64,000 nucleotides of DNA from an uncultured Bacilli bacterium (GCA_934162425.1 CAKPIS010000004.1:12821-76820); one strand, 5' to 3'; counted from the stretch's first letter, positions 28,033-53,254 are shown. The notes: a model not told the origin generated them from the letters alone. Made by a program: numbers and translations.

Positions 28033-28959
28033 TTAAAAACTACCTGAAGCTCCTCCTCCACCAAAGGAACCTCCTCCACCAGAAGAACGTCCTCCTCCAC
28101 TAGAAGAGCTTCCACCATCAAAGAAACTATCTGAAGTAGAACTAGAATTACTACTATTAAAACTAATCGAACCAGGTTTTATTACATATGCAAGTATAAA
28201 TGAAAATACATTAAAAGGTGATACTATCATTGCTATATTAATTAAATTTTTCAATAAAAAACAAATAAATAATGTATTAACAATTATAAAGTATAAAATT
28301 CCTATTATAACTTTAATAAATTTTTTCTTTTTTTTACTCATTAGCCTTAAAATTACACCTAAAATAAAACCTATTGTAATACCTACATAAATGTTTCCAA
28401 CAGCATTAAAAGAACTATTATTACTATTAGCTGGTGCATCATATGATAAATTTAAATTATTAGCATCAACTATTTCTTTATATATAGCATCATAACCATT
28501 TTTAATTCCATCATTCCAGTTATTATTTTTAAGATAAGGTATCATATAAGTATCCCTTATTCTACCAGCCTTACCATCTGTAATTATACCTTCTAACCCG
28601 TATCCTACTTCTATTCTTAACTTTCTATCTTCATATGATACTAAAATTAATATACCATCATTTTTGTCTTTACTTCCTATTTTAGCTTTACGAGCAAACT
28701 CTAAAGAATAATCTTCTATTGTTTTTCCTTCTAAGTTTTTTACGGTAGTAACAACTATTTGGATGCCAGATGCATTATTTAATGCTGTACTCTTATCTAT
28801 TATATATTTTTTAGTTTCACTATCTAATACATTAGCATAATCATTTACATAAAAATCACTAGTTGGATTTACAATAGCTTTTACGTTTGGAATAAACAAA
28901 AAAAAGAAAAGAATAAGTATTAAAATCTTAATCTTATTCAAATGTAACTTCTGGAACAT
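28033..28959 (-). CDS. TPM-domain protein (YgcG-like) with TM segment and Gly/Ser-rich tail
   Basis: Signal peptide, TPM-like region, TM segment, then a C-terminal GGGRSSGGGGSFGGGG tail. Paired with LemA. The start is uncertain (ATG 28959 or 29007) and overlaps the lemA 3' end. Confidence 0.6.
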   Translation of the reverse strand: MFQKLHLNKIKILILILFFFLFIPNVKAIVNPTSDFYVNDYANVLDSETKKYIIDKSTALNNASGIQIVVTTVKNLEGKTIEDYSLEFARKAKIGSKDKNDGILILVSYEDRKLRIEVGYGLEGIITDGKAGRIRDTYMIPYLKNNNWNDGIKNGYDAIYKEIVDANNLNLSYDAPANSNNSSFNAVGNIYVGITIGFILGVILRLMSKKKKKFIKVIIGILYFIIVNTLFICFLLKNLINIAMIVSPFNVFSFILAYVIKPGSISFNSSNSSSTSDSFFDGGSSSSGGGRSSGGGGSFGGGGASGSF

Positions 28960-29512
28960 TATTTGCACTCTCTTTAGCTTCAAAATAAGCTTTATTTTCA
29001 AAACCAAACATACTAGCTATTATATTCTTTGGAAAACTCTTTATAGTCTTATTATAATTTTTTACAGCCTCATTATAATCTCTACGTGCTACAGCAATTC
29101 TATTTTCAGTTCCTGCAAGTTCATCTTGTAAATTAATAAAATTTGTATTAGCTTTTAAATCTGGATAATTTTCAACAACTACTGCTAAAGCATTTAAAGC
29201 ATTTGTAAGTTCTTGATTAGCATTTGCCTTTTCTTCTATACTCTTTGAATTAATCAAATTCTCACGTGCTGTTGTAATATTATCTATTACCTTTTCTTCA
29301 TGACTAGCATAACCTTTTACAGTATTAACCAAGTTTGGTATTAAGTCAGCTCTTCTTTCTAGTTGAACAGATATGTCTGCATACTTTCCTTCAACTTCTT
29401 CTTGTTTGTTAACAAGTCCATTATATGTGCTAGCAAATATAATTACCATCAAAATAACTATTGCAGCTATCACAATTCCAATTATTGTACCTTTTTTCAT
29501 ACTTACCTCCAC
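28934..29512 (-). CDS. LemA family protein
   Basis: N-terminal TM segment and a LemA-like sequence (NKQEEVEGKYADISVQLERRADLIPNLV). Confidence 0.8.
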   Translation of the reverse strand: MEVSMKKGTIIGIVIAAIVILMVIIFASTYNGLVNKQEEVEGKYADISVQLERRADLIPNLVNTVKGYASHEEKVIDNITTARENLINSKSIEEKANANQELTNALNALAVVVENYPDLKANTNFINLQDELAGTENRIAVARRDYNEAVKNYNKTIKSFPKNIIASMFGFENKAYFEAKESANNVPEVTFE

Positions 29513-29595: not shown

Positions 29596-30120
29596 TTATG
29601 TATTTCCACTTTCCTTTTTACTTTTTATAACTTTTTTTCTTCCTAGCCCTATAAATTTAGGATATTCTTTTGGATGCTTAAATACTTCAAGTGAATTTTT
29701 CTTATCCATTAAACTTACTACCCAACTTTCTTTATACTTAGGTGGTTTAATATTTAATGGAAACATATGTTTTACTATAATATCTTCTACCCTTTTATTC
29801 ATAAGCTGTGGAAATGTCTTTCTTGCATTTTCTAAAGCTTCCCTTGCATGAACAAAACCATGCATTTTTGTAAATTTCTTCTTTTGGGTGTTTTCTTGCC
29901 ATGGTTTATAATAAAAGTCATGTAATAATGCTCCAACTGATATATCTCTTACGTTTAAATGATGTTTTTTAGCAAATTTATATGAAGCGTAAGCAACTTC
30001 TAGGCTATGTTGATACACTGATTTATTTGGATGATGTAAATACTCTTTTCTCTTAATAAACTCTTCTGAATTTATTATATCTTTTACATATTCTAAGAAC
30101 TCCTCATCATATTTTTCCAT
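29596..30120 (-). CDS. HD-domain phosphohydrolase
   Basis: H..H...LLHD motif (LHHPNKSVYQHSLEVAY...ALLHDF). Confidence 0.6.
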   Translation of the reverse strand: MEKYDEEFLEYVKDIINSEEFIKRKEYLHHPNKSVYQHSLEVAYASYKFAKKHHLNVRDISVGALLHDFYYKPWQENTQKKKFTKMHGFVHAREALENARKTFPQLMNKRVEDIIVKHMFPLNIKPPKYKESWVVSLMDKKNSLEVFKHPKEYPKFIGLGRKKVIKSKKESGNT

Positions 30121-30217
30121 TTATTTATCTCCTTATTCTTTCTAATTATATCATTAATACTTAAAAATGCAATAAAAAAAACAAACTACTACAAATTACG
30201 ATATATATATAGTTTGT

Positions 30218-30499
30218 TTATTTTTGTTTAATTTTCTTTTCTATTTTTTCTAAGTTATCATATGTTTTTCCAACAAATTCTTCTAAATTAACTAACATAT
30301 CTGCATAAGCTTTTTTAATTAAATAATATTTTAATAATTCTTCATTATTTATATTATTAGTCAAAATAGAAAAGTCATCTTTAGCTATATCAAAATTATT
30401 TAAATTAACCATATAATCATCTCCTCTCAATTTAAAATATAATACATAAAAAAAATGGGCAATATCCATTCTACCACATTTTTTATCTTTGTCAAACAT
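30218..30499 (-). CDS. Small hypothetical protein
   Basis: 93-aa ORF tightly packed inside the operon. Confidence 0.35.
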   Translation of the reverse strand: MFDKDKKCGRMDIAHFFYVLYFKLRGDDYMVNLNNFDIAKDDFSILTNNINNEELLKYYLIKKAYADMLVNLEEFVGKTYDNLEKIEKKIKQK

Positions 30500-30511
30500 T
30501 TTTTGTCGAAA

Positions 30512-31132
30512 CTATTTAATTTTTAATACTTTTTTCATATAGCATTTTCCACATAAAGGTACATACTCATATTTTTCTTTTTTACCATCTATAATGCATT
30601 CATCACCTTTTAGAGTAAATCTTTTGTTTACTTTTCTTGCATTAAATCTTGCTTTAACACCACATGAACATATTGTTTCTAATTCTTTAAACTTATCAGC
30701 TAGTTCAAATATTCTTTTTGAACCTTCAAAAAACTCTGACTTAAAATTAGTTTTAAGTCCAAAACAAATAACTGAAATATTATGTTTTTTAGATATTATC
30801 CATATTTCTTCTACTTGTTTTTTTGTTAAAAACTGAGCTTCATCTACTAAAATTGCATCAGCTTTTAATATACTTTTAATGTATTTATCACAAAGTAAAC
30901 TTTCATTTTCTAATAATTTAATATCTACTTTTCTTTTAGGACCAATTCTTGATACTAAGTAATCTTCTCCTTTAGTATCAATAGAAGGCTTTATCAAAAC
31001 AACTTTTTTATTATTTTCTTCATAATTATAAGCCATTTGCAAAAGTGCCATACTTTTACCTGAGTTCATTGGTCCATATCTAAATTCTAGATTTGCCACT
31101 ACGCACCTCACATTATTTTTTATTTGGAACAA
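30512..31132 (-). CDS. tdk: Thymidine kinase
   Basis: P-loop GPMNSGKS and a C-terminal Cys4 zinc ribbon. The true start is probably GTG near 31098 (VANLEF..., RBS GAGGTG), which would remove the overlap with serS. Confidence 0.85.
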   Translation of the reverse strand: MFQIKNNVRCVVANLEFRYGPMNSGKSMALLQMAYNYEENNKKVVLIKPSIDTKGEDYLVSRIGPKRKVDIKLLENESLLCDKYIKSILKADAILVDEAQFLTKKQVEEIWIISKKHNISVICFGLKTNFKSEFFEGSKRIFELADKFKELETICSCGVKARFNARKVNKRFTLKGDECIIDGKKEKYEYVPLCGKCYMKKVLKIK

Positions 31133-32405
31133 TTACGCTTTTTCCACCCATATAAGGTCTTAAAACTTCTGGTATTAATACACTACCATCTTCTTGTAAA
31201 TTATTCTCTAAAAATGCTATTAACATGCGAGGTGGCGCTATAACTGTATTATTAAGTGTATGAGCAAATTCTTTAGTACCATCTTCTTTTTTATAACGAA
31301 TAAAAAGTCTTCTAGCTTGTGCATCTGTTAGATTTGAACAAGAACAAACCTCAAAATATTTTTTTTGTCTTGGACTCCATGCTTCAATATCACAAGATCT
31401 ATACTTAAGATCAGCAAGGTCACCAGAACAACAAACAAGTTTTCTAACTGGTATATCTAAACTTCTAAATAATTCTACTGAATAATTCCACATTTTATCA
31501 TACCAAGCATCACTATCTTCTTTTTTACATACAACTACCATTTCTTGTTTTTCAAATTGATGAATTCTATATATACCACGTTCTTCTATACCATGAGCTC
31601 CTACTTCTTTTCTAAAGCATGGAGAATATGAAGTCATTGTAATAGGTAAATCGCTTTCTTTTAATAATTGATCTTTAAATTTAGCTATCATAGAATGTTC
31701 TGATGTACCAATTAAATATAAGTCTTCCCCTTCTACTTTGTACATCATATTTTCTTTTTCTTCAAAAGACATAACACCATCTACTGCTGAAGATCTAATC
31801 ATATATGGTGGAATACAGTACGTAAATCCTTTATTAATCATAAAATCCCTAGCATAAGAAAGTACTGCTGAATGAAGACGTGCAATATCTCCCATTAAAT
31901 AATAAAATCCATTACCACTAACACGGCCAGCAGCTTCTTTATCAAGACCATTAAATGTAGCCATTATATCTGAATGATATGGTATTTCAAAATTAGGAAC
32001 TTTAGCTTCTCCAAATACTTGTTCTTCTACGTTTTTAGAATCATCTTCACCAATAGGTACATCATTCGCTATAATGTTTGGAATCATCATCATTTTTGTC
32101 CTTATTTCTTTTTCTAAAGCTATTTCTTCTTCCTCTAATTTTGGAATACTTTCTTTAATTAACGCAACTTCTTCTTTTATTTTATTAGCACCATCTATAT
32201 CTTTGTTACGCATAAGGTTACCAATTTCCCTGCTAAGTGTATTAATAGAACTTCTTTTTTCATCAGCTTGCGCCTTAATACTTCTGTACTTTATATCCAT
32301 ATCATATACTTCATCAACTAAAGGTAACTTTTTATCCTGAAATTTCTTTTTAATATTTTCTTTTACTAAAGCTTTATTTTCTCTTATTAGTTTAATATCT
32401 ATCAT
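31113..32405 (-). CDS. serS: Seryl-tRNA synthetase
   Basis: 430 aa. N-terminal coiled-coil and class II core motifs typical of SerRS. Confidence 0.95.
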   Translation of the reverse strand: MIDIKLIRENKALVKENIKKKFQDKKLPLVDEVYDMDIKYRSIKAQADEKRSSINTLSREIGNLMRNKDIDGANKIKEEVALIKESIPKLEEEEIALEKEIRTKMMMIPNIIANDVPIGEDDSKNVEEQVFGEAKVPNFEIPYHSDIMATFNGLDKEAAGRVSGNGFYYLMGDIARLHSAVLSYARDFMINKGFTYCIPPYMIRSSAVDGVMSFEEKENMMYKVEGEDLYLIGTSEHSMIAKFKDQLLKESDLPITMTSYSPCFRKEVGAHGIEERGIYRIHQFEKQEMVVVCKKEDSDAWYDKMWNYSVELFRSLDIPVRKLVCCSGDLADLKYRSCDIEAWSPRQKKYFEVCSCSNLTDAQARRLFIRYKKEDGTKEFAHTLNNTVIAPPRMLIAFLENNLQEDGSVLIPEVLRPYMGGKSVIVPNKK

Positions 32406-32406
32406 A

Positions 32407-32904
32407 TTACTCCATCTCCTCTAATCTATTTCTTATTTTTTCATACGAAGGAGTATATCTTTTCTCTACTCTTTCATAATCATATACAGTAGGTTCCTTT
32501 ATTCTTGATAAGTCCATGTTATTTTCTAAATCAGCCATTTTAACAACTAAAGCTTCTTTAGATGCATTCTTAATTAAATTATCAATATATTCAAAATAAG
32601 TTACCTTTTTATTTCTAGAAAGAATTATAACATCATCTACTATCTTTTTATCAAATCCTATATCAAGTAAATCTTCTTTTGTAACTTTTTTATCTTCTAT
32701 TACATCATGAAGTAGCGCAACTATTTTTTCATCTATAGTATTTACATTGCGATATACATAAAATAAGTGTAAAAGATATGGAAATCCTCCTTTATCTGTA
32801 TCATTTTTAAATAGTATTAAAGAAAGTTCTAAAGCTTTATATATACTATTATTACTCGTCTTTAATTCTTCATACTTTTCATCAGTTAAATATTCTTTTA
32901 GCAT
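32407..32904 (-). CDS. Small SpoT/Rel-type HD-domain hydrolase (small alarmone hydrolase-like)
   Basis: GGFPYLLHLFYV...VALLHDVIEDKKVTKEDL...VVKMADLENNM matches the ppGpp-hydrolase HD signature (AALLHDvvEDT, KLADRLhNm). Confidence 0.7.
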   Translation of the reverse strand: MLKEYLTDEKYEELKTSNNSIYKALELSLILFKNDTDKGGFPYLLHLFYVYRNVNTIDEKIVALLHDVIEDKKVTKEDLLDIGFDKKIVDDVIILSRNKKVTYFEYIDNLIKNASKEALVVKMADLENNMDLSRIKEPTVYDYERVEKRYTPSYEKIRNRLEEME

Positions 32905-32914
32905 AACATTCTCC

Positions 32915-33160
32915 TTATTTATTTTTAGTTTCTATATTTTGTTCTTCAAATCTATATTTTTGTTTTACGTTTGGATATTTTTCATGGTCTACTTCACTTA
33001 AAAACATATCAAGTGGTCTAACATATAGTTCTAAAGAGCCATGTAATCCTCTATATAAAACTAACTTTTCTTTTGTCTCAGAATGAATTACTGTATCTAT
33101 TACTAAGTAATAATCTCCTTTAAAGTGTTTGTAAATTGTGTTTTTTTGTAATTTTCTCAT
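32915..33160 (-). CDS. DUF1653-like small protein
   Basis: [11 protein letters not shown] motif, 81 aa. Confidence 0.5.
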
Positions 33161-33163
33161 TTT

Positions 33164-33571
33164 CTATTCTCCTTTTATTTTTATTTTATACATATTTGCA
33201 TAGCTATATTTACCATCATCACTAAAAACATATTTAGTTGGAATATTAACATCACCTACGTATTTTGCATTTTGACTTTCAGCTAGCTTAATAGATGCTA
33301 TATTATCTGGAATTATAGCTAAATATAAATCATTATCATCTATTCTTCTTATGTTATCAACTAATAGTTTAAGTGCTTTTTTACCATACCCTTTATTTCT
33401 ATATTCTTCATATAAAAAGTAAGATAAATTACCAACTATACTATCATTTTCATATGTATATGAAATATGTCCTATTTCTTCTAATGTTTCATTTAAGATA
33501 ATTTTAAAATATGCTTCATTAGGAACATCTTCTAAAATAAGAGATATTATTTTATCACTTGCAAATATCAT
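33164..33571 (-). CDS. GNAT family N-acetyltransferase
   Basis: RNKGYGKKALKLL motif A. RBS GGGGGG. Confidence 0.65.
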   Translation of the reverse strand: MIFASDKIISLILEDVPNEAYFKIILNETLEEIGHISYTYENDSIVGNLSYFLYEEYRNKGYGKKALKLLVDNIRRIDDNDLYLAIIPDNIASIKLAESQNAKYVGDVNIPTKYVFSDDGKYSYANMYKIKIKGE

Positions 33572-33591
33572 TTAAATTCCCCCCAATAATT

Positions 33592-33810
33592 ATAAAAAAG
33601 AATAAGCCTATATATTGCTGGAGTGATATTAATCACGGTGCCATCACAGCTTATTCTTAATTTATTTAACGACCCATAAGTGCCGCAAATGCTTTTAACA
33701 TTTGTCTTAGAAGTAGATTCACTAAATACTATTTATCATTTCACACCATGTAATGACTCTCTTTAAAATAGAATTTTAGCTAATAGTCTTCATCAATGAT
33801 TTAAATATAT
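33592..33810 (-). promoter_or_regulatory. T-box-like leader (Ser-specific?) with terminator, heading the GNAT-DUF1653-HD-serS-tdk operon
   Basis: Leader of about 240 nt, GC-rich for this genome. It contains a K-turn-like UGAUGAAGA, a candidate specifier GAAUCUAC, and the T-box-like GUGAUGGCACCGUG. The UGGC bulge is complementary to the GCCA 3' end of tRNA-Ser. The terminator is AAGAATAAGC...GCTTATTCTTTTTT at 33592-33658. Confidence 0.5.
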
Positions 33811-33814
33811 CTTT

Positions 33815-33843
33815 ATATTATAATAAATGCTTTTAATTGTCAA
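33815..33843 (-). promoter_or_regulatory. Sigma-A promoter of the T-box leader/serS operon
   Basis: TTGACA, 17-nt spacer, TAATAT on the minus strand. Confidence 0.5.
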
Positions 33844-33852
33844 TTTATAAAA

Positions 33853-34566
33853 CTATAAATTTACGTTATGATATACTTTTTGTACATCTTCAACTTCATC
33901 TAACATAGAAAGTAATTTATCAAAGTTTTCTTTATCTTCACCTTCTAATGTAGTCATTTCATCTGGTATCATAGTAACTTCATCATAAGTAATATCAGCA
34001 TCTTTTTTATAATCTAAAATAGCTTCTTTTATCTTATATAAATCGCTAGGATCTCCATATATTGTTAAAGTATTATCTTCTGTTTCTATATCTTTAGCAT
34101 CTACTTCTTTCATAAGAAGTGCTTCATAAGCTTCATCTTCTGTTAAATCTTTAACCATAACAACAGCTAAATTTTCATACATATGAGATACACATCCCTT
34201 TGCTCCCATCTTAGCTTTAGACTTAGTAAATGCATTTCTAACTAAACTTACTGTTCTATTAACGTTATCTGTTAAACAATCTACTATAACAGTTGCACCA
34301 CCAGATGCAAAACCCTCATATCTAGCTGCCGTGTAGGATTCATCTACACCACTATTTACCTTATCAATTGCTCTTTTAATAACATCAGCTGGAACTTGCT
34401 CTTTTTTTGCCTTTTCAATTAAATGTCTTAATGTCAAATTACCATTAGGATCTGTTCCACCTTGTTTTGCAACACTATATATTTCTTTTGCATAACTTGA
34501 ATATATTTTAGCCTTAGCTTGACCAGTTTTAGCTTTACTAGCTGCTATATTAGGAAATCTTCCCAT
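33853..34566 (-). CDS. yebC: YebC/PmpR family transcriptional regulator
   Basis: 237 aa. The MGRFPNIAASKAKTGQAKAK N-terminus is typical of YebC. Confidence 0.9.
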   Translation of the reverse strand: MGRFPNIAASKAKTGQAKAKIYSSYAKEIYSVAKQGGTDPNGNLTLRHLIEKAKKEQVPADVIKRAIDKVNSGVDESYTAARYEGFASGGATVIVDCLTDNVNRTVSLVRNAFTKSKAKMGAKGCVSHMYENLAVVMVKDLTEDEAYEALLMKEVDAKDIETEDNTLTIYGDPSDLYKIKEAILDYKKDADITYDEVTMIPDEMTTLEGEDKENFDKLLSMLDEVEDVQKVYHNVNL

Positions 34567-38699: not shown

Positions 38700-38790
38700 T
38701 GGCGGAGTGAGAGGGATTTGAACCCTCGCGCCAGTTGCCCAGCCTACACCCTTAGCAGGGGCGCCTCTTCAGCCTCTTGAGTATCACTCC
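38700..38790 (-). tRNA. tRNA-Ser (anticodon GCU), long variable arm, CCA encoded
   Basis: Reverse complement folds as GGAGTGA...CTGCTAA loop...long variable arm...GGTTCAAATCC...TCACTCCGCCA. Length 91 nt. Confidence 0.9.
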
Positions 38791-39868: not shown

Positions 39869-39957
39869 TGGTGCCCGAGGCCGGACTTGAACCGGCACGA
39901 GGTATGAATCTCGCAGGATTTTAAGTCCTGTGCGTCTACCAATTCCGCCACTCGGGC
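39869..39957 (-). tRNA. tRNA-Leu (anticodon UAA)
   Basis: Long variable arm, anticodon loop CTTAAAA, CCA encoded. Length 89 nt. Confidence 0.85.
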
Positions 39958-39961
39958 AACA

Positions 39962-40037
39962 TGGTGTCCAGTACGCGACTTGAACGCGTGACCCTCTGAT
40001 TAAAAGTCAGATGCTCTACCGACTGAGCTAACTGGAC
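39962..40037 (-). tRNA. tRNA-Lys (anticodon UUU)
   Basis: Anticodon loop CTTTTAA. Length 76 nt. CCA encoded. Confidence 0.85.
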
Positions 40038-40052
40038 ATACTACAAAAATTT

Positions 40053-40128
40053 TGGTTGCCTCGGCAAGATTCGAACTTGCGCATGTCAGAGTCAAAGTCT
40101 GATGCCTTACCACTTGGCGACGAGGCAA
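40053..40128 (-). tRNA. tRNA-Gln (anticodon UUG)
   Basis: Anticodon stem TCAGA/TCTGA, loop CTTTGAC. Length 76 nt. Confidence 0.8.
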
Positions 40129-40136
40129 TTCTTAAG

Positions 40137-40220
40137 TGGTGGGGAGAAATGGATTCGAACCATTGAACCCGAAGGAACAGATTTACAGTCTGCCGCGTTT
40201 AACCACTTCGCTACCTCCCC
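40137..40220 (-). tRNA. tRNA-Tyr (anticodon GUA)
   Basis: Long variable arm, loop CTGTAAA. Length 84 nt. Confidence 0.8.
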
Positions 40221-40225
40221 ATATA

Positions 40226-40301
<76 letters not shown>

Positions 40302-40306
40302 ATAAA

Positions 40307-40383
40307 TGGTGGACGCTATAGGACTCGAACCTATGACCCCCTGCTTGTAAGGCAGGTGCTCTAACCAACTGAGCTAAGCATCC
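40307..40383 (-). tRNA. tRNA-Val (anticodon UAC)
   Basis: Loop CTTACAA. Length 77 nt. Confidence 0.85.
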
Positions 40384-53055: not shown

Positions 53056-53254
53056 ATTAAAGCACCTCCATAATAAAAAGTGAATACAAGAGAAGTATCC
53101 ACCTTAAAAACGCTATTAAATTATATCTATTTACTTTGGCGTTTAACCCATTACTCTAGTAATCAGGTGAGATAAATACTAATCTTCTTTCCTTCTATAT
53201 CAAAATTACGTTAACTAGTATACAATATATTTTACGTTTTGTAAAGTATTTTTA

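Follow-up and report, generated by a model that had tools for sequence, protein, structure and literature searches.

We examined a 64,000-nucleotide (nt) stretch of DNA from an uncultured Bacilli bacterium (GCA_934162425.1 CAKPIS010000004.1:12821-76820, hereafter the window) and a leader within it that precedes a string of genes including serS. This leader is very probably a serine T-box riboswitch, which would act by transcription attenuation on a six-gene operon (GNAT-DUF1653-HD hydrolase-serS-tdk-orf93), with a purine-rich arm of its terminator as the moving part; for the switch itself, we infer the model that fits best. Three things are new here: the Aph-family identity of the hydrolase, the invariant hydrolase-serS pair under a Ser T-box, and a nested terminator in a T-box without Stem III. 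Coordinates are positions in the whole 64-kb window, and the genes and leader features described all lie on the minus strand.

Scanning with Rfam RF00230 gave a full-length match at 33805..33616 (model positions 1-219, 78.3 bits; E=2.8e-17 locally and 3e-15 over the 64-kb window), the only T-box in the window. Such a match lies far beyond chance and confirms, at the level of sequence, that the T-box element is real, bearing out the T-box-like leader of the original prediction, though under the Rfam gathering score of 93 bits. Since 78.3 bits is below that score, default annotation misses the leader: a default Rfam scan of the window reported no T-box, and the match was found only with an E-value threshold.

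Relatives were collected with a profile of homologues of the HD protein, which gave 80 loci from species-representative genomes. Loci L001-L045 belong to uncultured gut Bacilli, carrying labels such as 'Clostridium sp. CAG:594', 'Candidatus Aphodocola', 'uncultured Mollicutes' and 'Erysipelotrichaceae', and provide the 45 clade leaders referred to below. Fourteen of these leaders were tested against the gathering score: nine reach it, with 93.8-113 bits, and five fall below.

The leader lies in a 281-nt intergenic gap (33852..33572) between a YebC/TACO1-family gene (34566..33853) and the GNAT gene. As had been pointed out before, this gap holds a sigma-A-type promoter (33815..33843), made up of TTGACA (33843-33838), a 17-nt spacer and TAATAT (33820-33815). 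In a consensus scan, the promoter matches 10 of the 12 consensus positions, which alone is not above chance; in most of the 45 orthologous leaders, equivalent hexamers align with its -35 and -10 elements, and the region is identical in conspecific strains bar one spacer base.

The Rfam alignment places all tRNA-sensing parts in order. Stem I (33705..33799) carries a K-turn/GA motif UUGAUGAAG (33796-33788), an AG bulge AGAGA (33762-33758), a distal loop UGGUGUGA (33748-33741) and the specifier loop, in which UCU, a Ser codon, occupies the RF00230 specifier position (33717-33715) in the context GAA-UCU-A, followed by the purine A 33714. Both the K-turn-like UGAUGAAGA and the possible UCU specifier named by the original prediction thus fall at the positions that RF00230 assigns to them. 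Next come Stem II (33704-33686) and the Stem IIA/B pseudoknot region with the F-box ...GUCGUUA (33685-33667). The antiterminator module (33617..33650) consists of the A1 5' strand GCUGuGA (33650-33644), the 7-nt T-box bulge UGGCACC (33643-33637; core GUGA-UGGCACC-GUG), the A2 hairpin GUGAU-UAAU-AUCAC (33636-33623) and the A1 3' strand UCCAGC (33622-33617).

The Stem I motifs (K-turn, AG bulge, distal loop and specifier loop) are conserved across the 45 leaders, and CCGUUA, the F-box, is conserved in all of them. The specifier column reads UCU in 37 leaders and UCA in eight, both Ser codons, with a purine as the next base in 43 of 45; the restriction to these two codons is strong sequence evidence for the Ser-specificity of the T-box. 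At the bulge, 17 leaders carry UGGC and 28 carry UGGU. Within the species, the leader is ~99% identical among gut strains, and the changes leave the specifier, the bulge and the arms untouched. The tRNA-Ser(GCU) of the window (38790..38700, minus strand) ends in ...CACUCC-G-CCA and therefore has a discriminator G that matches the C of UGGC, so that the complementarity between bulge and GCCA end proposed earlier is indeed seen. This tRNA gene stands alone; ~1 kb on, at 39869-40383 (minus strand), six tRNA genes (Val, Thr, Tyr, Gln, Lys, Leu) are tightly clustered. In two relatives, bacterial RNase P class B RNA genes lie ~1.5-3 kb 5' of the serS leader (L039:1522-1864 and L040:3107-3444).

The part of the leader that departs from the family is its expression platform. 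In the Rfam alignment of the window the Stem III positions are deleted, and only the purine-rich flanks are left (AAGAC / AAAUUAGGA); likewise, for the 113-bit leader of L008, the alignment deletes all 17 inner Stem III positions and aligns both flanks. At the 5' flank of the missing Stem III lies AAUUAAGAAUAAGC (33649..33662), which holds the purine-rich motif AAUUAAG together with the 5' arm AAGAAUAAGC (33658-33649) of a U-tract hairpin. This arm is predicted by folding to pair with the 3' arm GCUUAUUCUU (33607-33598; with the following U4-6, 33594..33607), and the two arms enclose the antiterminator module. The fold is a single long hairpin whose outer stem extends A1, with the bulge and A2 enclosed inside it. 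A terminator directly ahead of the GNAT ribosome-binding site had been noted, and the inverted repeat AAGAAUAAGC/GCUUAUUCUU with U4-6 agrees with it, the Shine-Dalgarno (SD) sequence GGGGGG (33584-33579) following ~10 nt on. The placing of the T-box sequence in the terminator loop was also right, but the non-canonical nature of this arrangement went unremarked.

The same layout recurs in the clade: CCGUUA is followed by AAUUAAG, a variable segment, AGGA-UGGNACC-A2-UCCU, the complement of the variable part, a U-run, the SD sequence and the start codon. The nested hairpin is predicted in 36-37 of 45 leaders. An alignment of the 3' domain with MAFFT and RNAalifold gave only A1 and A2, which pair counts likewise recovered with compensatory changes; indels misalign the arms, and a small covariance model of the nested domain was therefore used. 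This model finds the leader in all clade loci, in the window and in three other T-boxes of the lineage. In the alignment that it guides, which is fitted to the structure and made of related sequences, 92.6% of cells are paired as against 77.1±0.9% in shuffles, and 0 of 500 shuffles reach 92.6%; slid controls gave 40-60%. Double (compensatory) changes occur at 15 of the 19 pairs. Across 37 leaders, for example, rung 5 of the outer stem is C-G in 29, A-U in six and U-G in two, and rung 6 is U-A in 21, C-G in nine, U-G in five and A-U in two. In the 5' arm, the four lowest rungs (AAGA) barely vary, whereas those above covary. The nested, Stem III-less fold is thus supported by covariation among the aligned sequences.

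Some leaders reach the same end by another pairing. In seven (L009, L038-40, L042-44), the 3' arm GUACNAUUCUUUU pairs with AAAGGA-UGGUAC, that is, with the A1 5' strand and the tRNA-binding bulge; AAUUAAG is kept in these leaders too, even if their terminator leaves it unpaired. In L035, CCGCAGAA, which comprises the end of the bulge and the A2 5' strand, pairs with a downstream segment. The terminator consequently uses the 5' side of the discriminator in every clade variant. L007 represents the fully nested form, with a continuous helix of 16 bp, a free bulge and no register alternative.

Two other features of the platform were considered and set aside. A mini-hairpin of 3-4 A-U pairs (AAUU...AAUU), which might have stood for Stem III, is found in about one third of the leaders and is too weak and inconsistent. 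The G-C pair that closes A2 in place of the canonical G·U is no second deviation, as it also occurs in 28 of 121 control T-boxes. It should be noted that the 5' arm contains GACCA in L018, L020, L026, L029 and L036, and hence ACCA, which resembles the 3' end of a tRNA. In the truncated folds of L026, L029 and L036, this ACCA pairs with the bulge UGGU, and the matching 3' arm UGGUC copies the bulge; the likeness of the ACCA/UGGUC arms may be a coincidence or a built-in decoy.

Is this platform peculiar to the clade? Control T-boxes were obtained by a metagenome scan for CGTTA-N15-45-GGTGGTACCGCG, which gave 120 loci, and the same automatic classifier was applied to controls and clade; the Firmicutes loci L046-L080 yielded no real control T-box. 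Among 117 controls, the classifier called 101 canonical, six nested, two bulge-sequestering and eight without a U-run. Among the 45 clade leaders, it called 36 nested, seven bulge-sequestering, one canonical (L005, which is nested in a separate fold) and one without a hairpin at the U-tract (L035). On inspection, four of the six nested controls are clear (L154, L190, L192 and L197, on contigs of 25-33% G+C), and the other two look misclassified. All four retain Stem III, whose 3' strand joins the AA linker and the 5' strand of A1 to form the 5' arm of the terminator; Stem III and terminator therefore compete. An Asp leader from the clade itself, L039:5389 (specifier GAC, 5' of an Asp/AsnRS-like gene), shares this Stem III-competing design. 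On contigs below 35% G+C, six of the 15 control T-boxes with a scorable terminator are non-canonical. Competition for the 5' side thus appears, from these comparisons, to be a minority design in AT-rich genomes, with the serS leaders as its Stem III-less extreme. No description of a terminator that competes for the 5' side was found in the literature searched, nor anything relevant on T-boxes without Stem III; given the incomplete coverage of the former search, both are weak evidence of absence.

Compared with canonical transcriptional T-boxes (RF00230; the B. subtilis tyrS and glyQS types), the clade leaders are alike in Stem I, Stem II, IIA/B and the F-box, in the 7-nt UGGNACC bulge between A1 and A2, and in the U-tract hairpin just 5' of an aminoacyl-tRNA synthetase operon. 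They differ in that canonical T-boxes have the Stem III hairpin, which the clade lacks, and in the terminator: its 5' strand is canonically formed by the 3' halves of A1 and A2, whereas in the clade it is a segment 5' of the T-box sequence, so that the hairpin is nested. L154, L190, L192, L197 and L039:5389 share with the clade a terminator nested around A1, bulge and A2, but keep Stem III with its GAGUG and AA flanks. The class II translational T-boxes of actinobacterial ileS also depart from the Bacillus archetype while sensing charging with the same bulge; these have a short Stem I, a Stem III and a sequestered SD sequence, in contrast to the full Stem I, missing Stem III and U-tract terminator of the clade. 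The Paenibacillus polymyxa serA T-box is reportedly serine-specific as well, and its cargo and platform differ from those of the window.

In the model that we favour, the sigma-A promoter would start a leader of ~240 nt. Stem I, with its K-turn, UCU and AG-bulge/distal-loop platform, would together with Stem II and IIA/B recognise a UCN-reading tRNA-Ser by its anticodon and elbow, and the bulge UGGC would pair with the free 3' GCCA of the tRNA. By default, the U-run hairpin would stop transcription 10-25 nt before the first gene, and uncharged tRNA-Ser would let RNA polymerase read through to GNAT, DUF1653, the hydrolase, serS, tdk and orf93. When an uncharged tRNA is docked, the purine-rich 5' arm would be held on the tRNA/bulge duplex, as is the canonical Stem III purine string; the held arm could not pair with the 3' arm, and the base of the terminator beside the U-run would not form. 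When none is docked, the arm would be free and the hairpin would zip down to the U-run. The subclade of the window may add a further exchange, in which G33618-C33617 would pair with G33650-C33649 in the ON state, extending A1, or with G33641-C33640 of the bulge in the OFF state. The former pairing belongs to the antiterminator fold of the window (-9.0 kcal/mol); in the minimum free energy (MFE) fold with the outer stem and a sequestered bulge (-18.5 kcal/mol), taken as the OFF state, G33650-C33649 would go to the outer stem. A purine latch of this kind fits because AAUUAAG is conserved even where it is unpaired, because AAGA at the stem base is near-invariant while the upper rungs covary, and because the Stem III-competing relatives use the same region.

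Several observations count against this reading. The window leader scores under the Rfam gathering score, and it has AUUA (33784-33781) where the consensus has the conserved AGUA of the specifier-loop region. A tRNA search found no UCN-reading tRNA-Ser in the window or in the 45 related loci. In most leaders the terminator and A1/bulge/A2 are compatible, and no mutually exclusive fold emerges in silico; the mutually exclusive terminator and antiterminator envisaged by the original prediction are therefore absent in textbook form. Moreover, the terminator 5' arm has no conserved alternative partner, as the folds of truncated transcripts differ from leader to leader. In published work, the Stem III hairpin, flanked by 5'-RRRxG and AA-3', is part of the T-box discriminator, and the ON state requires its purine string to be docked on the duplex of tRNA-NCCA and bulge (PMC7583486). 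Antiterminators that lack Stem III show no appreciable tRNA binding (PMC7583486), so a T-box without it would need a compensating, so far hypothetical, feature. Finally, the AAG of the window's clade may be the RRRxG string or a former Stem III loop: the Rfam alignment of L008 and the comparison with L039:5389 disagree.

The closest competitor is a T-box that works without a purine latch, which we regard as possible though clearly less likely. Here the tRNA would block termination either sterically, the complex of tRNA, Stem I and Stem II lying ~8 nt 5' of the hairpin base and preventing its formation at the RNA exit channel, or through shifts of pairing register within the hairpin, by which the bulge would be freed or sequestered, as the fold of the window illustrates. 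In the MFE fold of the window, UGGC of the bulge pairs with GC/UAU. A 5' arm without a conserved competing helix is likewise in keeping with such a mechanism, and direct competition for the bulge is evidently used in the lineage, since the seven leaders described above and two control T-boxes sequester AGGA-UGGUAC by a GUACCA-like 3' arm. However, fully nested leaders such as L007 leave the bulge free with no register alternative, and the conservation of AAUUAAG beyond what pairing needs would go unexplained.

Downstream of the leader, the GNAT acetyltransferase gene (33571-33164, with ATG at 33571; 135 amino acids (aa)) is followed by the DUF1653 gene (33160..32915, 81 aa; Pfam PF07866, 1.9e-23), the Aph1-family HD-domain hydrolase gene (32904..32407, 165 aa), serS (32405..31113, 430 aa), tdk (31099..30512) and orf93 (30499..30218), a small conserved protein gene taken from the list of open reading frames (ORFs), which is the last of the unit. 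The successive gaps are of 3, 10, 1, 13 and 12 nt, and serS begins 1 nt past the hydrolase stop and 1166 nt downstream of the start of GNAT, which agrees with the unbroken same-strand string, with gaps of at most 14 nt and serS ~1.2 kb downstream, described earlier. The class II seryl-tRNA synthetase (SerRS) has the Pfam domains Seryl_tRNA_N (PF02403, 1.4e-21) and class II core tRNA-synt_2b (PF00587, 9.3e-35). The thymidine kinase gene (Pfam TK, 4.4e-37) likely starts with the GTG at 31099, 13 nt past the serS stop; the mechanical ORF begins at 31132, and the gene calls of conspecific contigs give the same 195 aa. For orf93, no Pfam or NCBIfam match was obtained; it is also called in conspecific contigs, and homologues of 40-44% identity sit 3' of serS in L002 and L045. 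Directly after its stop codon, folding predicts a terminator-like hairpin AAACAAACUA...UAGUUUGUUU with U8 (~30217-30173), which is A/U-rich and was missed by the consensus terminator scan, its stem having fewer than three G-C pairs. No terminator-like site lies before it in that scan, and none was noticed in the junction sequences read. Moreover, human-gut metagenome contigs as long as 670 kb carry the same six-gene string, with a leader 99% identical.

The operon is therefore likely to comprise the six genes GNAT-DUF1653-HD hydrolase-serS-tdk-orf93, with its 3' end near 30173. Read-through from a serine T-box leader into GNAT-DUF1653-HD-serS-tdk, as originally proposed, is supported by the RF00230 match, the Ser-only specifiers and the 1-nt HD-serS gap, and it would run on through orf93. 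The earlier lower bound of 29596 has to be given up: it takes in a second HD/HDIG-domain gene (30120..29596, 174 aa; Pfam HD), which is probably a separate transcription unit, because the terminator-like hairpin lies before it. By eye, TTGCAT-N17-TATAAT upstream of this gene looks like a promoter of its own, and in NCBIfam its product weakly resembles CCA-adding enzymes and the HD portion of fusion proteins of the NadD type. Among promoter-like matches, the region's best (30468-30495, minus strand; TTGACA-16-TAGAAT with an extended -10 TG, 11 of 12 positions) is inside the first codons of orf93.

Might internal promoters then mainly drive serS and the genes downstream of it, leaving GNAT (and DUF1653) alone under the control of the leader? 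Hexamer pairs do occur inside GNAT (33360-33332 and 33339-33312) and inside serS (31990-31963, 11 of 12). Such matches are, however, no commoner within genes than expected (34 observed, 39.2±7.2 in shuffles), the T-box stands directly before the hydrolase-serS pair with no gene between in ~30 related genomes, and the junctions of 1-13 nt or overlapping stop and start codons suggest translational coupling. We consider this arrangement very unlikely. A promoter and T-box of its own directly before serS, which would have detached it from the leader, was looked for in the whole-window RF00230 scan and in the junction sequence and found in neither, the HD-serS gap being 1 nt.

Still more doubtful is a decaying relic, in which the hairpin would be a constitutive, leaky attenuator and serS would not respond to tRNA. 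The score of the window below the Rfam threshold, the change of AGUA to AUUA and the loss of a Stem III held to be indispensable (PMC7583486) could be read in this way, but the tRNA-contact motifs are all conserved in 45 species, the specifier is limited to two Ser codons, compensatory changes are seen in A1, A2 and the arms, the leader hardly varies within the species, orthologues pass the Rfam cut-off, and there is no second promoter or T-box before serS. Equally improbable is class II-like translational control, in which, with charged tRNA, CUCCU/CUCCA of A1 would sequester the SD sequence, the U-run hairpin being incidental: CUCC of the A1 3' strand is complementary to the SD sequence (GGGGGG/AGGAGG) in every leader, but this match is expected anyway from A1 (AGGA/UCCU) and any SD sequence, the SD sequence lies outside every predicted hairpin, nearly all 45 leaders conserve, with covariation, the hairpin directly followed by at least four U, and Stem I has the complete platform that transcriptional T-boxes typically show. 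SD sequestration by CUCC was accordingly discarded.

We then considered which parts of the string are conserved along with the serine T-box. The HD gene is followed by serS in 44 of the 45 clade loci, with a GNAT gene between them in L024 and L027; L029, a locus of only 2,085 nt, has no serS match. Loci L046-L080 (Paenibacillus, Clostridia and others) carry more distant HD homologues, with no serS in their vicinity. Wherever a clade locus extends far enough upstream, a TGGNACC core sits just before the string's first gene; this first gene is the HD gene in ~30 loci, DUF1653 in five and GNAT in seven plus the window. DUF1653 is 5' of the hydrolase in 13 related loci. The conserved core would therefore be T-box, HD hydrolase and serS, to which GNAT and DUF1653 appear to be later additions in the subclade nearest the window. 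Hence, of the three genes that the original prediction took to be inserted between leader and serS, GNAT and DUF1653 do look lineage-specific, whereas the HD gene is present in all 44 relatives that bear serS. The GNAT of L024 and L027 (L024:5509-6048 and L027:5508-6047; 179 aa, Acetyltransf_3) sits elsewhere in the string, between hydrolase and serS, and is only remotely related to that of the window (pairwise E=0.007); GNATs therefore appear to have been recruited at least twice. In L012, the GNAT 5' of DUF1653 is a double-domain version of 305 aa. A protein of ~156 aa is encoded after serS in L001 (6869-7345) and at similar spots in L002, L003, L006 and L045, the L001 copy being Phage_YunG-like (PF24591); tdk, which directly follows serS in the window, is 0.7-3 kb further away in those relatives.

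The hydrolase had been labelled a SpoT-like ppGpp hydrolase, a label that needs refining. The 165-aa HD protein has no Pfam match, and its best PDB match is 7SMG, '(p)ppApp hydrolase' (Aph1), with E=3.6e-22 for the protein and 6.8e-28 for the clade profile. The next PDB match of the profile has 8.6e-08, and every (p)ppGpp hydrolase trails 7SMG by ~20 orders of magnitude. The hydrolase clade alignment shows the HD metal-binding motif H66-D67 as well as D37, D131, R134 and Y150 to be invariant, and K148 to be at least 90% conserved. The specificity of Aph1 involves residues D24, R96, D116, R119, K133 and Y134 (PMC10083569). Five of these six are kept, D24/D116/R119/K133/Y134 corresponding to D37/D131/R134/K148/Y150, and R96 is replaced by N109. 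The protein is thus probably, as judged from these matches and residues, an Aph1-family hydrolase of the (p)ppApp type.

Aph1 of Bacteroides caccae is an immunity gene beside a MuF-fused (p)ppApp-synthetase toxin, and the diverse neighbourhoods of Aph1 include 'translation' in general terms, the main text naming neither serS nor T-boxes (PMC10083569). Like the window's protein, Aph1 is a single-domain HD hydrolase of similar size; unlike Aph1 in its toxin-immunity setting, the gene of the window is locked between a Ser T-box and serS. Nothing relevant was found in the literature on small alarmone hydrolases linked to a T-box or to SerRS, which is weak evidence of absence.

The two lineage-specific genes offer fewer clues. 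The GNAT protein matches Acetyltransf_3 (2.4e-09, 38.4 bits against a cut-off of 25.4) and Acetyltransf_1 (3e-07) in Pfam, and the acetyl-CoA motif R-N-K-G-Y-G is visible in its translation; PDB and NCBIfam gave only weak, generic matches for the subfamily. One might presume that it detoxifies seryl-adenylate mimics, as RimL/MccE would, an idea that is our assumption and finds no support here. DUF1653 has a sole PDB relative, 3BE3, an uncharacterised protein, and fusions gave no clue to its function, the 120 closest homologues all being stand-alone. One 242-aa protein, P0002, is 99% identical to the hydrolase and carries an N-terminal DUF1653 domain. It is probably an indel or frameshifted call and not a true fusion, because the DUF1653 and hydrolase genes of the window are 10 nt apart and out of frame.

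Elsewhere in the window, two ORFs on the minus strand at 28033-29512 (28934..29512 and 28033..29007) overlap by 74 nt, the second having a long Gly/Ser-rich C-terminal tail. At 53066-53195 (minus strand), a match to the ribosomal protein L20 leader RF00558 covers the full model length (E=0.004) but scores 35 bits, below the gathering score of 58.7.

Taken together, poor charging of tRNA-Ser would raise SerRS and an alarmone-type pyrophosphohydrolase in a fixed ratio. Tentatively, and with rather less confidence than in the riboswitch itself, the comparisons may point to a second, undescribed class of T-box platform, in which the terminator competes for the 5' side of the discriminator (Stem III, the purine latch or the bulge) and of which this clade, without Stem III, would be the extreme. 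The charging of tRNA-Ser would then be hard-wired to an Aph1-family alarmone hydrolase coupled to SerRS, pointing to an undescribed link between a (p)ppApp-type nucleotide and serine charging. Structural work calls Stem III and its purine string indispensable, and 45 species with a conserved Ser T-box lacking Stem III would be a natural exception; the textbook switch is an exchange of strands between antiterminator and terminator, whereas the terminator of this clade wraps the antiterminator instead. If functional, it would represent another way to couple tRNA sensing to termination, and a minimal natural discriminator for structural study. For annotation, such leaders can fall under the Rfam cut-off, and pipelines that expect a canonical terminator would mis-annotate them, especially in AT-rich genomes. 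Finally, the arrangement of T-box, Aph-like hydrolase and serS would offer a concrete physiological setting for hydrolases of the (p)ppApp family outside toxin immunity.

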